UHGV virus genome: UHGV-1847153
DNA length: 17,799 bases
Source: a virus
Strand: one strand, 5' to 3'
The notes below the pieces were generated by a model. The model had not been told where the DNA came from and made no database searches. It worked only from the letters and a program-made list of their open reading frames with translations. Position 1 is the stretch's first letter. Each line of letters starts with the position of its first letter. Below are positions 5,833 through 13,569 of the stretch, one piece after another. The position numbers and the translations under genes were made by a program.

Positions 5833-6993
5833 ATGACGCAGGGCTTACCTGTATCCAACGTTGTAAACGTTGATGTGATCATCTCGCCGAAAGCGGCTAC
5901 TGGTCGTAACTTCGGCGCACTGCTGATCCTCGGTTCTTCCACTGTCATTCCGGTGCAGGAGCGCGTTCGCCTTTATGCGTCCGTTGATGACATTGGCGAG
6001 GACTTCGGAGTCGACAGCCCGGAATATGAAGCGGCGCAGGTTTTCTTCAGCCAGTCGCCGAAGCCGACGCAGGTTTATGTTGGCCGCTGGGCGAAGACGC
6101 TGACCTCTTCCGAAGGTGGAAGCGTGGAAACCATCGTGCAAGCTGTTAATGCCTGCCTGCAGTATACCAACTGGTATGGGCTGGTTGTCGCTGATGATGT
6201 TGCTGATGGCGATGATGTGCTTGATGCTGACGACGTGATTGAGGTTGCTAAACTCATCGAAGCGTCCAGCCTGAGCCGCATTTTCGGGGTAACGTCAGCC
6301 GACGCTGAGATCATCAGCACGACTTCGACGACCGATGTTGCGTCTAAATTAAAGGCCGGTAAGTATTCCCGTACCTTTATTCAATATTCCACCAGCAGCC
6401 CTTATGCGGCGGTTTCAGCTTTCGGTCGCGCGTTTACTGTCAATTTCAACGGCAGCAATACCACCATTACCCTGAAATTCAAACAGGAACCGAGCGTAAC
6501 CTACGAAACGCTGACGGTAGGACAGGCGGCGGCTGTGGATGCGAAGAATGCGAACGTGTTCGTGTACTACGCCAACGACACGGCGATCCTGCAACAGGGT
6601 GTCATGGCGAACGGTGACTTCTTCGACGAGCGCCACGGGCTCGACTGGTTGCAGAACTACGTTCAGACCAACCTCTATAACCTGCTTTACACCAGCACCA
6701 CCAAAATTCCGCAGACTGATGCCGGTGTGACCCGTCTGCTTTCCAACGTTGAACAGTCCATGGATCAGTCCGTCACGAACGGTCTGGTAGCGGCTGGCGT
6801 GTGGAATGGTGGCCCTATCGGACAGCTGAATTCCGGCGATACGCTGACCAAAGGCTATTACGTGTATGCGCAACCGCTGTCCGAACAGGCGCAGGCCGAC
6901 CGCGAAGCGCGCAAAGCACCGTTAATTCAGGTGGCCTGTAAGCTGGCTGGCGCAGTTCATTATGCCGATGTTCAGATCAACGTGGTTCGCTAA
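5833..6993 (+). CDS. Tail sheath protein (DUF3383-like by recollection)
   Basis: RBS GGAGAA 5821-5826 before ATG 5833. 386 aa, immediately upstream of tube and chaperone genes, in a module that also has baseplate J/V/W/I-like genes (contractile tail). Confidence 0.6.
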
Positions 6994-7003
6994 GGAGCGA
7001 TAA

Positions 7004-7444
7004 ATGGCAACTTATTCTTTTCTCGATGTAACCGCGTCGCTCACCGGGCCGACCGGCGTTATCGATCTTGGTCAGGGTTCTGCGAACTCTGAGGAAGGTA
7101 TCACCCAGACCATGGGCGGCAACAAGAACACCATGACCATCGGTGCCGATGGCGAAGTGATGCACAGCCTGCACGCCGATAAGTCAGGCACCATTACGGT
7201 GACGCTGCTGAAAACCTCCCCGGTGAACAAGAAGCTGTCTCTGGCGTATAACGCGCAAAGCCAGTCCTCTGCCACCTGGGGAAATAACGTGATCGTCATT
7301 CGCAACACGGCATCGGGTGATATTTCTACTGCGCGTTCGTGTGCATTCCAGAAACAGCCTGATTTCAATAACGCCAAAGAGGGCGGAACCGTAGCCTGGG
7401 TATTCGATTGCGGCAAGATTGACCAGCTGCTCGGGGAGTTTTAA
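7004..7444 (+). CDS. Tail tube protein (DUF3277-like by recollection)
   Basis: RBS AAGGAG 6992-6997 before ATG 7004. 146 aa, between sheath and chaperone genes. Confidence 0.6.
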   Translation: MATYSFLDVTASLTGPTGVIDLGQGSANSEEGITQTMGGNKNTMTIGADGEVMHSLHADKSGTITVTLLKTSPVNKKLSLAYNAQSQSSATWGNNVIVIRNTASGDISTARSCAFQKQPDFNNAKEGGTVAWVFDCGKIDQLLGEF

Positions 7445-7447
7445 CGC

Positions 7448-7873
7448 ATGGAATTCGAAATTAAAGGCGTGAAATATCGCACCGCAAAGCTCAGCGTTTT
7501 CGAACAGCTGAAGGTGTCCCGAAAGCTGTTGCCGGTGCTGGCCGGGATGGTTTCTGACTTCCGGAGCATTCAGGAGAAGATCAGCAGCAAAGACACCGAA
7601 GGCGCGATGGCTACCATCCTGCCAAAGATTGCCAATGCTGTGTCCGATCTGAGTGATGGCGACGTGGACGCTATCCTGTTCCCCTGTCTTTCCGTTGTTT
7701 CACGCGAGCACATGAAAGGCTGGGTGCCGGTCTGCCAGCATGGCGAAATGGCGTTTGACGATATCGACCTGCTTACCATGCTGCAACTGGTGGCGCGGGT
7801 GGTCGCCGACTCGCTGGGAAATTTTTTGCAAGGACTCCCTACCAGCGAGACGCCCACCCCGCTAGCGGAATAA
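7448..7873 (+). CDS. Tail assembly chaperone (zero-frame product, lambda G analogue)
   Basis: RBS GGGGAG 7433-7438 before ATG 7448. Directly upstream of the tape measure gene. Contains a slippery run near its 3' end with an open -1 frame extension. Confidence 0.6.
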   Translation: MEFEIKGVKYRTAKLSVFEQLKVSRKLLPVLAGMVSDFRSIQEKISSKDTEGAMATILPKIANAVSDLSDGDVDAILFPCLSVVSREHMKGWVPVCQHGEMAFDDIDLLTMLQLVARVVADSLGNFLQGLPTSETPTPLAE

Positions 7874-8061
7874 CCTTCAACAGCCTGCCGGGCGGTGAAG
7901 ATTTTATTCTTCGCCCGGCGCTTGCCTTCCATATTGACCAGAAAGACCTTAACAGCGGTGCGGTAGACCTTTGCCGCATCGCGCTTCTCAATGACTACCT
8001 CGACATGCGCGAGGATAACGACGCCCGGGTAGATAAATGGAGAGCGGCCAATGAGCGGTAA
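7448..8061 (+). CDS. Tail assembly chaperone -1 frameshift fusion product (lambda G-T analogue); joins zero frame 7448 to about 7822 with the -1 frame to 8061
   Basis: The -1 frame downstream of the slippery run is open for about 80 codons (...KFFARTPYQRDAHPASGITFNSLPGGEDFILRPALAFHIDQKDLNSGAVDLCRIALLNDYLDMREDNDARVDKWRAANER) and ends 10 nt inside the tape measure gene. The chaperone frameshift upstream of the tape measure gene is a conserved feature of long-tailed phages. Confidence 0.5.
7816..7828 (+). other. Candidate -1 programmed ribosomal frameshift site: GGGAAATTTTTTG, overlapping slippery heptamers G_GGA_AAT, A_AAT_TTT, T_TTT_TTG in the chaperone zero frame
   Basis: Zero-frame codons CTG GGA AAT TTT TTG read directly. 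The -1 frame is open from 7759 to the TAA at 8059-8061. Confidence 0.5.
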
Positions 8062-10318
8062 CGCAGATACGATTAAAGATTTCCTTGTTTCGCTGGGATT
8101 CGATATCGATCAGGCTGGCGCTAATAAGTTTGAAGCCGTGCTGAAAGGCGTTACAGCTAACGTTCTGAAGGTCGGCGCGGTGGTGGAAGGCGCAGCGCTG
8201 AGCATTGTCGGATTTACCACTCAGATCGCGAACGGTCTGGATAAAATTTACTGGGCATCCCAGCGGACGGGGGCCAGTGTCCAGGGCATCAAAGCGCTGG
8301 GATACGCCGCATCGCAAACCGGTGCCAGCGCCGAGTCGGCTATGTCCTCCCTCGAAGGGCTGGCCGGTTTCATGCGTAGCAATCCGGGCGCGGAAGGCTT
8401 CCTGAACCGCCTGGGCGTCCAGACTCGCGATGCCAGCGGAAAGATGCGTGATACTGCGGCCATCTTTACTGGCGTTGGGCAAAAGCTCAACAACATGCCG
8501 TATTACCGCGCGAAACAATACGCGCAGATGCTTGGCATCGATGAAAACACGCTGATGGCGATGCGGCGCGGCATGAATGGCTTTACCGCCGATTACCAGT
8601 CGATGCTGCAAAAGACAGGGTTCAACGCTGATAAAGCGGCTGTTCAGTCCAACAAATTCATGACGTCCATGCGCGGGCTTACGTCGCTGTTCGGCATCAT
8701 GCGGGACAAGATCGGCTCAAACCTCGCTGGTGGCCTGGCTGGTTCGCTGGACAGCCTGCGGCGGCGCATCCTCGACAATTTCCCGAAGATTGAAGAGACG
8801 CTGACCAGAGTTATTAAAGGCGTGATCTGGCTTGCGAACGCATTCACGAGAATGGCGTGGCGGCTGATACAGGGCGCTGGCTCTGTCATCGACTGGTGGA
8901 AGCGTCTTGACGATGGCAGTAAAAATCTGCTGAAAATATTCGGTGCTCTACTTGTCGCATGGCGTCTGCTTAATTCTGCGTTCCTGAAATCCCCGATTGG
9001 AATTATCACCACGCTGATTCTGGCGATCGGATTACTCTATGACGATTATCAGACGTGGAAAGAAGGCGGTAAAAGCCTGATTGACTGGTCCAAGTGGGAG
9101 CCTGCAATAGAAAAGGCGAAAAAGGCAATTCTCTGGCTGCGCGATAAGCTTCTGGGGCTGAAAGATTCTGTTGGTGGATGGCAGAACTCGCTGGAAATTT
9201 TGGCTACTTTCATCGCTGGGGTATGGGTAACAAAAGTATTGGGAGCATTCGCAAAAATATCCGGTCTTCCGATACCTCCATGGCTTAAATTATGGGGAGC
9301 GTATGCTGGTTACCTGGTTTCAGATCGTGAAAACATAAAAGCCAGTGCTAAATCATCTTTGGACTATACCAAAAGGAACATTGGTGATGCTCTTGCTACG
9401 GTTGGCATCAAAACCGACCTTGGGCGAAAAGATGTTAGCGAGGTAAGAGAATGGCCCGCATGGATGGATTGGCTGCATGGTGGCCCAGGTAAGATTATTC
9501 GTCAGGCGCAAAGCAATGGCGTCGTTTATGGCGATAATGTTCAGCCTGACATTCCCGGGGCGGAACAGCATGTTCGTAGTAATGAAATTGCCCCGCATGA
9601 AAGAGATGAAATAAAAAACCGTCAGCAGGCTGCTAATGGTTATCTTGAAAAAATCTCAGACGGGATTGCCAAAATCGGTAATTTATTTTTCTCCCCGGCT
9701 GGAGCTGCTGAAATCTCTCCAAATATATCGGGTGACCCCTCCCAGTTTGCGCAATCAGTCAAACGTCCACAGGCCACAGCCCAGGGCAAAGTATTGCTCG
9801 ACTGGATGGGGCCAATGTTCAATAAACTTGAGTCGCTTTATCAACTTCCAGCTGGTCTATTGAAAAGTGTGGCGATAACCGAGTCAGGTGGTAACCAGTT
9901 CGCCATGTCCGGCGCAGGCGCGAAAGGTCTGTTTCAGTTTATGGATGGTACGGCGCGCGACATGGGCCTTCGCGGAAACGATGTATTCGACCCGCAAAAG
10001 TCAGCTCAGGCCGCAGCTAAGTACCTCAGCCAGCTGTTGCGGCAGAACGGCGGAGACCTTAGCAAAGCACTGGCATCATATAACTGGGGGATCGGGAATG
10101 TTAAGCGCTATGGCATGGGGTTAATGCCGCAGGAAACGCGTAACTACATTCCGAAAGTAATGAGCAACATGCCCACCAGCGCCCCGGTGATTCAGCAGGA
10201 AACGAATATTAACATCCACGGCGTTTCCGATCCGCGCGAGGCTGCCCGTTTGACTGTTGATCGTCAAAAGGGCGTGAATTCACAGTTAACCCAGCAACTC
10301 CCCGCAGGACCGAGATAA
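8051..10318 (+). CDS. Tail tape measure protein with C-terminal soluble lytic transglycosylase (SLT) domain
   Basis: RBS GGAGAG 8039-8044 before ATG 8051. 755 aa. Hydrophobic helices in the middle (LLKIFGALLVAWRLL..., IGIITTLILAIGLLY, LEILATFIAGVWVTKVLGAF). SLT-like block around 9840-10130 with catalytic-type ES motif (VAITESGGNQFAMSGAGAKGLFQFMDGTARDMGL...YNWGIGNV). Position after the chaperone frameshift. Confidence 0.8.
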   Translation: MSGNADTIKDFLVSLGFDIDQAGANKFEAVLKGVTANVLKVGAVVEGAALSIVGFTTQIANGLDKIYWASQRTGASVQGIKALGYAASQTGASAESAMSSLEGLAGFMRSNPGAEGFLNRLGVQTRDASGKMRDTAAIFTGVGQKLNNMPYYRAKQYAQMLGIDENTLMAMRRGMNGFTADYQSMLQKTGFNADKAAVQSNKFMTSMRGLTSLFGIMRDKIGSNLAGGLAGSLDSLRRRILDNFPKIEETLTRVIKGVIWLANAFTRMAWRLIQGAGSVIDWWKRLDDGSKNLLKIFGALLVAWRLLNSAFLKSPIGIITTLILAIGLLYDDYQTWKEGGKSLIDWSKWEPAIEKAKKAILWLRDKLLGLKDSVGGWQNSLEILATFIAGVWVTKVLGAFAKISGLPIPPWLKLWGAYAGYLVSDRENIKASAKSSLDYTKRNIGDALATVGIKTDLGRKDVSEVREWPAWMDWLHGGPGKIIRQAQSNGVVYGDNVQPDIPGAEQHVRSNEIAPHERDEIKNRQQAANGYLEKISDGIAKIGNLFFSPAGAAEISPNISGDPSQFAQSVKRPQATAQGKVLLDWMGPMFNKLESLYQLPAGLLKSVAITESGGNQFAMSGAGAKGLFQFMDGTARDMGLRGNDVFDPQKSAQAAAKYLSQLLRQNGGDLSKALASYNWGIGNVKRYGMGLMPQETRNYIPKVMSNMPTSAPVIQQETNINIHGVSDPREAARLTVDRQKGVNSQLTQQLPAGPR

Positions 10319-10932
10319 TGGATATTTTATCAGCGATTTTTCGCCAGCAATCCCGGCGAATTGGAATATTAATCCCCAGCGTGGTTGTTTCTGAAAAGCA
10401 TTCTGATGCGCTCGAAATTACTGAGCACCCGGTGGAGAAGCCAACAACGAATAGCGCTTCGGGCTTCATCGCCGATCATGCGTATAAGCGCCCAAGCGAA
10501 GTCACGATGGAATGCGGCTTCGCTGGTGGCGGTTCATTGCTGGACTTCATTGATACATCGTCAATCGGCCTCAGCGCCGGACTTAGCCCGAAAGAGACAT
10601 ACCAAAAGCTGCTGGATATGCAGCTTGAGCGCGTACCGTTCGATGTGGTTACCGGGAAGAGGGTGTACACCAATATGCTGGTGCGTGCCATTGAGGTGAC
10701 GACCGATAAAACCAGCGAGAACGTGCTGAACTGCACGCTTACCCTGCGTGAAGTGATCATGTCGCAGACATTTAAAAAGCAGGTCGCAGATAAGTCGGAT
10801 ATGCAGGATGGTGTCAGTACGTCAGCAGTGCAGAATTCCGGGACGAAATCGGTTACATCGGTGAATGATTCGCTCTTGGGGCAGGTCACGGGTGCGAGTA
10901 AGGTTGGCGGACGTTATCAGTTACCTTTCTAA
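10318..10932 (+). CDS. Hypothetical tail / baseplate protein
   Basis: TAATG overlap with the tape measure stop (coupled). 204 aa. Function not recognisable from sequence alone. Confidence 0.5.
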   Translation: MDILSAIFRQQSRRIGILIPSVVVSEKHSDALEITEHPVEKPTTNSASGFIADHAYKRPSEVTMECGFAGGGSLLDFIDTSSIGLSAGLSPKETYQKLLDMQLERVPFDVVTGKRVYTNMLVRAIEVTTDKTSENVLNCTLTLREVIMSQTFKKQVADKSDMQDGVSTSAVQNSGTKSVTSVNDSLLGQVTGASKVGGRYQLPF

Positions 10933-10942
10933 TGAGGTTTAT

Positions 10943-11248
10943 ATGCAGTTTAACGAAATACCGCTTTCTCCTGACAATCAGCAGTTCCGCGTTTTGCTGG
11001 GCAATACCACCTATACGCTCAGGATCATCTGGCGCGATGCGGCTGGCTGGATCATGGACGTGATGGATAGCGGCGGTGCTGCGCTTCTTTCTGGCGTACC
11101 TCTACTGACCGGCGTGAACCTTTTACGACAATTTCCACAGCTTGGCATTGATGGTGCGCTGGTGGTGGCTACCGATAAGGGGGCACCAGACGAACCCACC
11201 AAAACCAACCTCGGCACATACAGCCACCTTATTTTCGTACAGGAGTAG
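10943..11248 (+). CDS. Hypothetical small tail / baseplate protein
   Basis: RBS GAGG 10934-10937 before ATG 10943. The ORF-track start at 10865 would overlap the upstream gene by 68 nt, so 10943 is preferred. Stop TAG 11246-11248. Confidence 0.45.
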   Translation: MQFNEIPLSPDNQQFRVLLGNTTYTLRIIWRDAAGWIMDVMDSGGAALLSGVPLLTGVNLLRQFPQLGIDGALVVATDKGAPDEPTKTNLGTYSHLIFVQE

Positions 11249-12684: not shown

Positions 12685-12738
12685 ATCAATAATCGTTGAT
12701 CTCGCGTTTTTATTATGCACTAATCTGTACATGTACAG
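12685..12738 (+). promoter_or_regulatory. Candidate promoter/operator of the TA cassette: -10-like TATTAT (12711-12716) and 14-bp perfect palindrome CTGTACATGTACAG (12725-12738) directly upstream of the antitoxin RBS
   Basis: One of only two sizeable intergenic gaps in the window (12667-12748). Palindrome read directly. -35 element is weak or unclear, so promoter placement is tentative. Confidence 0.35.
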
Positions 12739-12748
12739 AGAGGGTGCC

Positions 12749-13162
12749 ATGAAAATCATTACTTACACGCAAATGCGATCGGATTTATCTGCAACGCTGG
12801 ACTGTTTACGCTCTGGTGAAAGCGTCACAGTTACGCAGCGCGGAAAGCCCGACCTTGTCATCAGTGCAAAATCAGTTGATGAAATCGCTTCCGCAGATGA
12901 GGTAAAAACATCTGCGAAAACAATAGACACGCATCTTGCGCAATTAATTGCATCGAATTTGTCACCACAGATAACGGAGGGTGTCATGAAGCTTACTAAG
13001 CAATTGGATGCCCTTCTTCAGTCTGATGAGGCTCGCCAGACTATGATGAAGGCCACTAATGCAGCAGTTGCTTTGCAGGGCGTGTCTGAGTCATTTATCA
13101 AAGCTCTGCAACATACTCAGACCAAGCATGCGGACATCATAAAAAAACTGGAAGATAAGTAA
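12749..13162 (+). CDS. Phd/YefM-like antitoxin with an unusually long C-terminal extension (137 aa)
   Basis: RBS GAGGG 12740-12744 before ATG 12749. N-terminus (MKIITYTQMRSDLSATLDCLRSGESVTVTQRGKPDLVISAKSVDE) resembles the Phd/YefM fold pattern recalled from P1 Phd. Stop TAA overlaps the doc ATG (TAATG) at 13160-13164. Internal in-frame GGAGGG-ATG at 12976-12988. Confidence 0.6.
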   Translation: MKIITYTQMRSDLSATLDCLRSGESVTVTQRGKPDLVISAKSVDEIASADEVKTSAKTIDTHLAQLIASNLSPQITEGVMKLTKQLDALLQSDEARQTMMKATNAAVALQGVSESFIKALQHTQTKHADIIKKLEDK

Positions 13163-13569
13163 TGACTGAGATTACATTCCTTTCGGTAGATGAGGTCATC
13201 GCTATTCAGAAGAGCACATTGCCAAATAGCGGACAACCAGACCGGGGAAAACTCGAAGGTGCCCTCAATCGCGTCGATAACTTACGCATGTATGAAGGAT
13301 GTGAGGATTTATTTAAATTTGCAGCTATGTACATGGTTGCGATAGCGAAGTCTCACGCTTTTAATGACGCCAATAAGCGAACGGCTTTCCAGGCCGCCAG
13401 CGTGTTTTTGCTTTTGAATGGCTATGAACTGAATACCTCAATGGAGTTAGTCAAGCTGACCATCTTTGCTGCTACGGGAGAGGCCGACTGCGATAACACT
13501 GCTTTGGCGCTTAAACTTTTGTCAGATTATAAGAATGAGCTGCTGGCAGATACGATAACTGGCTACTGA
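13162..13569 (+). CDS. doc: Doc (death-on-curing) family toxin, Fic fold
   Basis: Intact Doc signature HxFxDANKR (SHAFNDANKRTAF, codons 13354-13380). Overall pattern closely resembles P1 Doc as recalled (DLF..A.Y.VA.A..H.FNDANKRTA....FL..NG...........L...ATGE). 135 aa. Translationally coupled to the upstream antitoxin. Confidence 0.8.
   Translation: MTEITFLSVDEVIAIQKSTLPNSGQPDRGKLEGALNRVDNLRMYEGCEDLFKFAAMYMVAIAKSHAFNDANKRTAFQAASVFLLLNGYELNTSMELVKLTIFAATGEADCDNTALALKLLSDYKNELLADTITGY

Follow-up and report, generated by a model that had tools for sequence, protein, structure and literature searches.

The tail assembly chaperone of phage P2 comes in two forms, gpE and gpE+E', which were reportedly described by Christie et al. 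in 2002. In phage lambda the corresponding pair is gpG and gpGT, in which tape measure protein is bound through the N domain and tube protein through the C domain (PMC5009743). The lambda G/GT frameshift was reported by Levin, Hendrix and Casjens in 1993 and by Xu, Hendrix and Duda in 2004, 2013 and 2014, and this work is summarised in PMC5009743. At the chaperone locus of the Pakpunavirus group, the -1 frame is open in all genomes examined and carries a T-rich slip motif, GTTTTT, and the downstream "hypothetical protein" of the Pakpunavirus/Vandenendeviridae phage Adele is the C-terminal part of the long chaperone form (PMC12846349). Here we present the chaperone locus of the UHGV virus genome UHGV-1847153, as found in a stretch of 17,799 nucleotides (nt) that we call the window, meaning the whole stretch of DNA that was analysed, and which carries the tail module of a temperate enterobacterial myovirus. 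The window very probably carries a G/GT-type programmed -1 ribosomal frameshift in its tail assembly chaperone gene, as a preliminary description of the same DNA had proposed; we hold this reading to be supported because the gene order, the chaperone family, the DUF6889 domain, the absence of a start codon for the extension, the conservation of the locus, its coding signature, the annotation of phages Mulock and Magia, and the heptamer at the annotated slip site of P2 all point to it. The features on which the argument turns are the following, where ORF stands for open reading frame and aa for amino acids.

7448-7873, plus strand: tail assembly chaperone, zero-frame ORF of 141 aa; Pfam Phage_TAC_15 (E=5e-33), with a chaperone-like fold
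7816-7828, plus strand: slippery run GGGAAATTTTTTG, with three overlapping in-phase X_XXY_YYZ heptamers
7816-7822, plus strand: heptamer 1, G_GGA_AAT
7819-7825, plus strand: heptamer 2, A_AAT_TTT, probably the primary slip site
7822-7828, plus strand: heptamer 3, T_TTT_TTG, a second slip opportunity
7825-8061, plus strand: -1 frame extension, predicted to form the C-terminal end of the 204-aa long form (TAC-NC)

The chaperone ORF at 7448-7873 is the short form, equivalent to lambda gpG (TAC-N). Across the run its codons read CTG GGA AAT TTT TTG (7814-7828), and with this codon phase G_GGA_AAT, A_AAT_TTT and T_TTT_TTG are therefore all X_XXY_YYZ heptamers in phase, lying 45-51 nt upstream of the end of the ORF, whose zero-frame stop is TAA 7871-7873. 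The -1 frame is open from stop to stop over 7759-8061; its own stop is TAA 8059-8061, and its end overlaps the start of the tape measure gene (ATG 8051) by 11 nt. Both the triple run at 7816-7828 and the open -1 frame ending inside the tape measure gene had been given in the preliminary description, and both were confirmed. Its figure of about 80 added residues was right in that the extension exists and slightly too large in size, as the frameshift adds 77-78 residues, with the linker first and the core of the DUF6889 domain at about 7939-8046; the predicted long form has 204 aa for a slip on either heptamer 2 or heptamer 3. The predicted junction reads ...LGNF-FARTPYQ (peptide VVADSLGNFFAR) if the ribosome slips on heptamer 1 or 2, and ...LGNFL-ARTPYQ (peptide VVADSLGNFLAR) if it slips on heptamer 3. 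The junction first suggested, KFFARTPYQ, has to be corrected, since its K is not in the product.

Across 5659 codons, the genes of the window contain 21 single in-phase heptamers, where chance predicts 22. What sets the chaperone triplet apart is that it alone leads to a long -1 ORF which continues past the zero-frame stop and lacks a start codon; the interval 7759-8061 is the sole plus-strand open stretch of at least 100 codons that is not explained by an ordinary gene, and the -1 frame is open for at least 80 codons at just 2.4% of in-gene positions. The one other candidate, an in-phase A_AAG_GGC heptamer at 10267-10273, lies 45 nt before the tape measure stop, with a -1 frame that enters the Dit-like gene (10318-10932). 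It is probably a coincidence, because the Dit-like gene begins with an ATG of its own, which overlaps that stop.

We compared the locus with 19 diverse phages and with 109 further loci from genomes and viral contigs (71 unique sequences). Of 129 loci, 128 have a -1 frame that is open all the way from the slippery run, and in all 19 of the diverse phages and 70 of the 71 unique further sequences this frame continues for 55-75 codons after the zero-frame stop; in these relatives the -1 ORF ends at the start of the tape measure gene or slightly inside it. The sole exception among the 129 loci comes from Enterobacter sp. R1(2018) (L035, ~1620-1694), where the extension is 22 codons long (...LRPARRRFSG, then a stop); prophage decay or an indel in the assembly is the probable cause. 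The -1 translation that begins at 7828 has matches to Pfam DUF6889 (above the gathering score, E=1.2e-11) and to phrog_4364 (E=2e-17), and across the relatives the extension keeps the motif LP-GED-L-RP...DG-DL-DIALMND-L-V-ADN. Past the zero-frame stop, differences at -1 codon positions 1, 2 and 3 number 576, 482 and 1169 in the enteric set and 4532, 3602 and 7212 overall, which puts about twice as many differences at position 3 as at position 1 or 2, a pattern typical of protein-coding selection, here on the -1 region. In loci L007, L008, L010, L018 and L019 a -1 frame stop stands directly 5' of the run, and the change of frame must therefore take place within the run or in the ~50 nt of zero frame that follow it.

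The run itself is conserved as well. An in-phase canonical heptamer is present at the homologous position in 17 of the 19 diverse phage relatives, and AAATTTTTT was found in each of the 119 enterobacterial loci. Among 48 unique sequences GGA, AAT and TTT never vary at their third position and TTG is kept in 47; the third position of GGA, which is fourfold degenerate, is A in all 48, and the flanking synonymous sites show 50-98% identity.

The locus shares its layout with lambda G/GT. Two overlapping ORFs, the chaperone and the -1 ORF, sit between the tube gene and the tape measure gene, directly upstream of the latter; the second has no start of its own, and together they would yield a short form and a C-terminally extended form. 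Low-level frameshifting is expected in both systems, without a strong stimulator, and the two domains with a linker at the shift point are predicted by modelling for the window system too. The differences are that lambda is a siphovirus and slips on G_GGA_AAG, whereas the window has a tandem run in which G_GGA_AAT is dispensable, and that the Pfam families are not the same, those of the window system being Phage_TAC_15 and DUF6889. With P2 the locus has in common the contractile tail, the gene order sheath, tube, chaperone and tape measure, and the heptamer T_TTT_TTG, which in gene E lies in GGT TTT TTG and is followed immediately by the "site of -1 translational frameshift" marked in RefSeq NC_001895; in P2 the -1 ORF runs 8 nt into gene T, and that of the window runs 11 nt into the tape measure gene. 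P2 differs in having one heptamer and a zero-frame stop 18 nt on, against 45 nt in the window. Homology of the extension to P2 E' was rejected, no sequence similarity being detectable (BLASTP E=0.14; Phage_TAC_7 and Phage_P2_GpE there, Phage_TAC_15 and DUF6889 here), and the window system works like gpE/gpE+E' but is not a member of the P2 protein family. The Pakpunavirus case, published recently, resembles ours in the kind of argument, in concerning a myovirus chaperone locus, in its open -1 frame and in its T-rich motif, and differs in its phage family and in the motif itself, the phages being large lytic Pseudomonas phages; the likeness drawn here is one of argument.

True homologues are found in two phages whose frameshift has been annotated. 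Klebsiella phage Mulock (MN098327), in which the fused query is 56% identical by tblastn, has the same GGGAAATTTTTTG run and a -1 ORF of equal length, while Burkholderia phage Magia (MT701587) has a single C_CCT_TTT followed 5 nt later by a 10-bp hairpin that is absent in the window. In the curated GenBank records of both, a single CDS labelled "tape measure chaperone frameshift product" spans the two frames; these annotations are predictions, and our literature search for a paper on Mulock mentioning a frameshift found none in the library searched. Other records treat the extension (7874-8061 in the window; homologues P0121-P0148 and L131 879-962) differently, as a stand-alone protein under inconsistent names. 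RefSeq prophages of E. coli carry a 27-aa remnant named "DUF6889 family protein", and further records use the names "lytic transglycosylase" and "NTP pyrophosphohydrolase", which were clearly carried over by error. The nearest record, that of phage Omnitron, is unannotated, and none of the records closest to the window includes the long form of the chaperone. Two claims of the preliminary description, that this is a conserved chaperone frameshift and that simple ORF calling misses it, are both upheld, and the frameshift is an unannotated instance of a well-known textbook mechanism by which long-tailed phages produce their chaperone in two lengths.

The three heptamers do not appear to be equivalent. 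Because of the comparative data, the published motif rules for E. coli and the heptamer at the annotated slip site of P2, we would rank A_AAT_TTT (7819-7825) first and T_TTT_TTG (7822-7828) second. G_GGA_AAT has been destroyed three times by synonymous leucine changes (CTC or CTT in L026, L034 and L111), and heptamer 1 is therefore dispensable. T_TTT_TTG is invariant in the relatives apart from one change of TTG to TTA, which is still slippery, and the position most widely shared in the family is N_NNT_TTT. Outside the enterics, Acinetobacter phages carry A_AAT_TTT at the site, Burkholderia phages and WC36-2 carry C_CCT_TTT, and a Bordetella phage retains G_GGA_AAT only. In a systematic study in E. 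coli, H_HH.U_UU.Y was among the most efficient heptamers and G_GG.A_AA.U fell outside the efficient class V_VV.A_AA.R (PMC4066793); the G_GGA_AAT member of the run is probably weak.

In the mechanism that we infer, from the slippage itself and the heptamer used to its efficiency and the binding roles of both domains, most ribosomes on the chaperone gene would stop at TAA 7871-7873 and release the 141-aa short form. A minority would slip back 1 nt on the A3T6 run, most likely at A_AAU_UUU (7819-7825), with a second chance at U_UUU_UUG (7822-7828), and would then read the -1 frame to TAA 8059-8061 and make the 204-aa long form, in which the chaperone domain would be joined by a flexible linker of ~20 residues to DUF6889, a helical domain. 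If the analogy with lambda gpG/gpGT and P2 gpE/gpE+E' applies, the two forms should coat the tape measure protein through their shared N domain, the rarer C domain should recruit the tube protein, and the frequency of slipping would set the ratio that tail assembly needs. The predicted architecture fits this outline. We modelled P0004, a natural fusion 60% identical to the predicted long form, with AlphaFold2 (mean predicted local distance difference test score, pLDDT, 85); in the model the N domain (residues 1-136) is well folded, the C domain (158-211) is helical and confident, and a disordered segment (139-155) starts directly after LGNFF. When the sequence of the fused protein was searched against the PDB, no relevant match came up.

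Stimulatory signals close to the run were sought on both sides. The 52 nt 3' of the run fold no better than shuffled sequences (z = -1.0; z = -0.4 in a second calculation), and RNAalifold on ten enteric sequences recovered no conserved structure downstream of the run. On reading the sequence alone, no Shine-Dalgarno-like stimulator was seen 6-17 nt before 7819. Two candidate structures were rejected. A larger fold over 7829-7930, pairing 7845-7854 with 7917-7925 (z = -2.7), has a partner that is not conserved, and RNAalifold does not recover it. An inverted repeat around the run, at 7801-7858, is 17 nt long and 82% complementary, with the run in its loop and an inner perfect 8 bp formed by CTCGCTGG (7810-7817) and CCAGCGAG (7842-7849); pairing across relatives is only slightly higher than in shuffles (64% of cells paired against 61%, with 41 of 500 shuffles doing equally well), and the 5' arm of the repeat would sit inside the ribosome during the slip.

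Relatives from outside the enterics (Burkholderia, Acinetobacter, Bordetella) have a single heptamer with a hairpin 5-8 nt later, the spacing in the Acinetobacter and Burkholderia phages being 5-6 nt after N_NNT_TTT. The stem is GGGCUGCU...AGCAGCCC in the Burkholderia phages, GGGCUG...CAGCCC in the Acinetobacter phages (z = -2.2 to -2.8) and 8+6 bp in the Bordetella phage (z = -3.1), and its 3' arms encode different amino acids in each clade with complementarity kept. This suggests that the enteric clade may have exchanged a proximal hairpin for tandem heptamers. The regions with this arrangement in the non-enteric loci are as follows.

L002, 1722-1765: slip site with downstream hairpin
L015, 1878-1922: slip site with downstream hairpin
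L017, 1995-2038: slip site with downstream hairpin
L016 and L018, 1908-1957: slip site with downstream hairpin
L011, 1851-1909: slip site with downstream hairpin

Several points weigh against the frameshift and have to be set beside the evidence in its favour. So far as the sequences go, all the support for it, in this phage as in its family, is comparative, and the choice among the three heptamers is one that we infer. The enterobacterial clade has no conserved stimulatory structure 5-9 nt downstream of the run, and the efficiency of frameshifting may therefore be low. Edwardsiella phage ZHS and Burkholderia phage E192a keep the -1 ORF without a canonical heptamer, so the heptamer rule is not absolute in the family. 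Some relatives, lastly, have an in-frame ATG, GTG or TTG past the zero-frame stop, from which separate initiation would be possible. At the site of the run ZHS (L014, ~1870-1950) reads GGG GAT TTT ATG and E192a (L017, ~1990-2050) reads GGT TCT TTT ATC; both retain the conserved extension, E192a also retains the downstream hairpin, and slipping in the two phages may be of a non-canonical kind or involve a single tRNA on U_UUU.

Those in-frame codons would suit a different explanation, in which the DUF6889 ORF is a separate small gene with its own, possibly non-canonical start and no frameshift takes place, as RefSeq/PGAP and several phage records have it, with stand-alone ORFs of 27-75 aa. However, the -1 frame of the window holds no ATG, GTG or TTG before 8005, a position inside the conserved domain and past its motif, and SEN34, YP3, 606R2, EKP1 and the Acinetobacter phages likewise hold none before the conserved LPGGED motif. 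The starts annotated for the ORF in the databases fall at no fewer than five positions among near-identical homologues, that is, at least five (MPYQRD, MTFN, MPGGED, MRPAL, MAFG), and some of them cut into the conserved domain; reading the sequence of 7874-7890 revealed nothing like a Shine-Dalgarno sequence; and an independent gene would not require a frame open all the way back to the run, as is found in all loci but one. We give hardly any credence to a separate gene. A second explanation keeps the fused protein and moves the slip to transcription: the polymerase would slip on T6 (or A3T6), and mRNAs lacking one U or carrying two extra would encode the fusion. The homopolymeric T6 is indeed invariant in the enterobacterial clade, and length variants at the run exist in public assemblies, from which it follows that the run is prone to indels at some level, be it replication, sequencing or transcription. 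P0004 itself is a clean in-frame fusion (...LGNFFAYTPYQ), probably through a T-run indel in the assembly; P0002 is an out-of-frame product (...LGNFCKDSLPARRPPR), and P0001 and P0109 are also assembly-derived, with indels at or near T6. Yet T6 is short for efficient polymerase slippage, the known cases of which involve about 7-9 or more A or T. Distant relatives keep the two-frame layout without a homopolymer (the Bordetella phage has GGGAAATAC and Magia has CCCTTTTATC), and in them two hallmarks of ribosomal slippage are retained, the X_XXY_YYZ phase and the hairpin 5-8 nt downstream. A slipping polymerase, moreover, needs no conservation in phase, yet most of the diverse relatives show it. 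Transcriptional slippage is for these reasons very unlikely, and a programmed ribosomal frameshift remains the reading that we prefer.

Beyond the zero-frame stop lies one further structure whose role has to be weighed.

7887-7919, plus strand: GC-rich hairpin of 8 bp, extendable to 9+3 bp, in the coding sequence of the extension

Its arms, GCCGGGCG (7887-7894) and CGCCCGGC (7912-7919), enclose a loop of 17 nt, and it encodes LPGGEDFILRPA, the most conserved motif of the extension. The preliminary description had the arms, the loop and the coordinates right and put the hairpin about 14 nt after the zero-frame stop, where the distance is 13 nt; it also judged the hairpin too distant to be a classical stimulator, and we agree, as it begins 58 nt after the end of the run (7828); in addition, its stem is not conserved across the family and there is no covariation. 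We likewise rejected it as a Rho-independent terminator (a scan found it not terminator-like, and there is no U tract, the sequence 3' of the stem being GCTTGCCTTCC) and as a conserved RNA element. The case for a functional RNA, either a distal modulator of frameshifting or an element that protects or regulates the 177 nt left mostly untranslated before the tape measure gene, begins with stability: the fold reaches -23.2 kcal/mol (z = -3.6), and none of 200 shuffles was as good. The hairpin starts roughly where the leading edge of a terminating ribosome would lie, 7-8 of its 8 pairs are kept in most members of the LPGGEDxILRPA subclade, in which the stem is intact, including prophages whose chaperone is ~64% identical, and the third-position changes in its arms are mostly wobble-compatible (GGC to GGT, CGC to CGT). 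Against this, no covariation was found in the stem among 16 relatives (65.6% of cells paired, against 68.5% in column shuffles), the A-U pairs are not associated with a change of G to A, and pairing in 46 unique sequences is no higher than in shuffles (0.807 against 0.808). Mulock, SEN34, YP3, the Klebsiella phages and every non-enteric relative have a broken stem, and the scan of the window against Rfam found no match to it. The two arms fall in the codons for the domain's most conserved residues, and synonymous recodings drawn with the codon usage of the window, which prefers CCG, GGC/GGT and CGC/CGT, give 8 of 8 pairs in 6.6% of draws and at least 7 in 29%, so that such pairing should arise fairly often through codon usage by itself. 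The hairpin has most likely arisen incidentally, from the preferred codons in which the conserved LPGG...RPA motif is written, and a function as RNA is improbable. It is doubtful, too, that both ideas hold jointly, namely that the enterics swapped their hairpin for the A3T6 triple-heptamer run, with its slip chances independent of structure, and that the hairpin at 7887-7919 has been selected for shielding or regulating the 177 nt.

The genes around the chaperone form a series that is the structural module of a myovirus, running from head to tail. Head morphogenesis, protease, major head and connector proteins are encoded 5' of the sheath gene, and the tape measure gene is followed by genes for Dit-like, Pam3_gp18-like plug and hub proteins and then for wedge and fibre proteins. 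The nearest neighbours of the chaperone gene are listed here.

5833-6993, plus strand: tail sheath gene; Pfam DUF3383 (E=6e-104), phrog_205 "tail sheath" (E=2e-129)
7004-7444, plus strand: tail tube gene; Pfam KPP10_Orf10 (E=6e-60), annotated as DUF3277 or putative tail tube in relatives
8039-8044, plus strand: ribosome-binding site GGAGAG of the tape measure gene, 6 nt upstream of ATG 8051, as read from the sequence
8051-10318, plus strand: tape measure protein gene, 755 aa; phrog_2276 "tail length tape measure protein" (E=2e-219)

The tape measure protein ends in a C-terminal SLT lytic transglycosylase domain (Pfam SLT, E=2e-24). Over 7000-8300 the window shares 98.5% identity with Citrobacter phage Omnitron, which is unannotated; 7400-8100 is also found, with at least 99% identity, as part of E. 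coli chromosomes in prophage form and, as protein, in several further enterobacterial genera. Scans of the window with Rfam models and for tRNAs gave no matches. The plug-protein ORF (Pam3_gp18-like, 10865-11248) overlaps the Dit-like gene (10318-10932) by 68 nt, and its real start is probably downstream of 10865 because the Pfam match begins at residue 30. Within the block of baseplate genes there is a Phd/Doc-type toxin-antitoxin pair (12731-13569, plus strand), made up of an ORF of 143 aa at 12731-13162 with a weak PhdYeFM_antitox match (E=1.5e-6, slightly below the gathering score) and an ORF of 135 aa at 13162-13569 that matches Pfam Fic/DOC (E=1.5e-11) and phrog_577 "Doc-like toxin" (E=1.5e-33); the two overlap through ATGA, and the pair looks like a moron inserted among the structural genes.

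For the family as a whole, Pfam DUF6889 appears to represent the C-terminal domain that Phage_TAC_15 chaperones encode in the -1 frame, and recognising it as that domain would correct hundreds of prophage annotations and give DUF6889 a role. The locus adds one clade to a conserved mechanism known since 1993-2004, and it offers a natural comparison, on a small scale, between tandem heptamers without a hairpin and a single heptamer with one.

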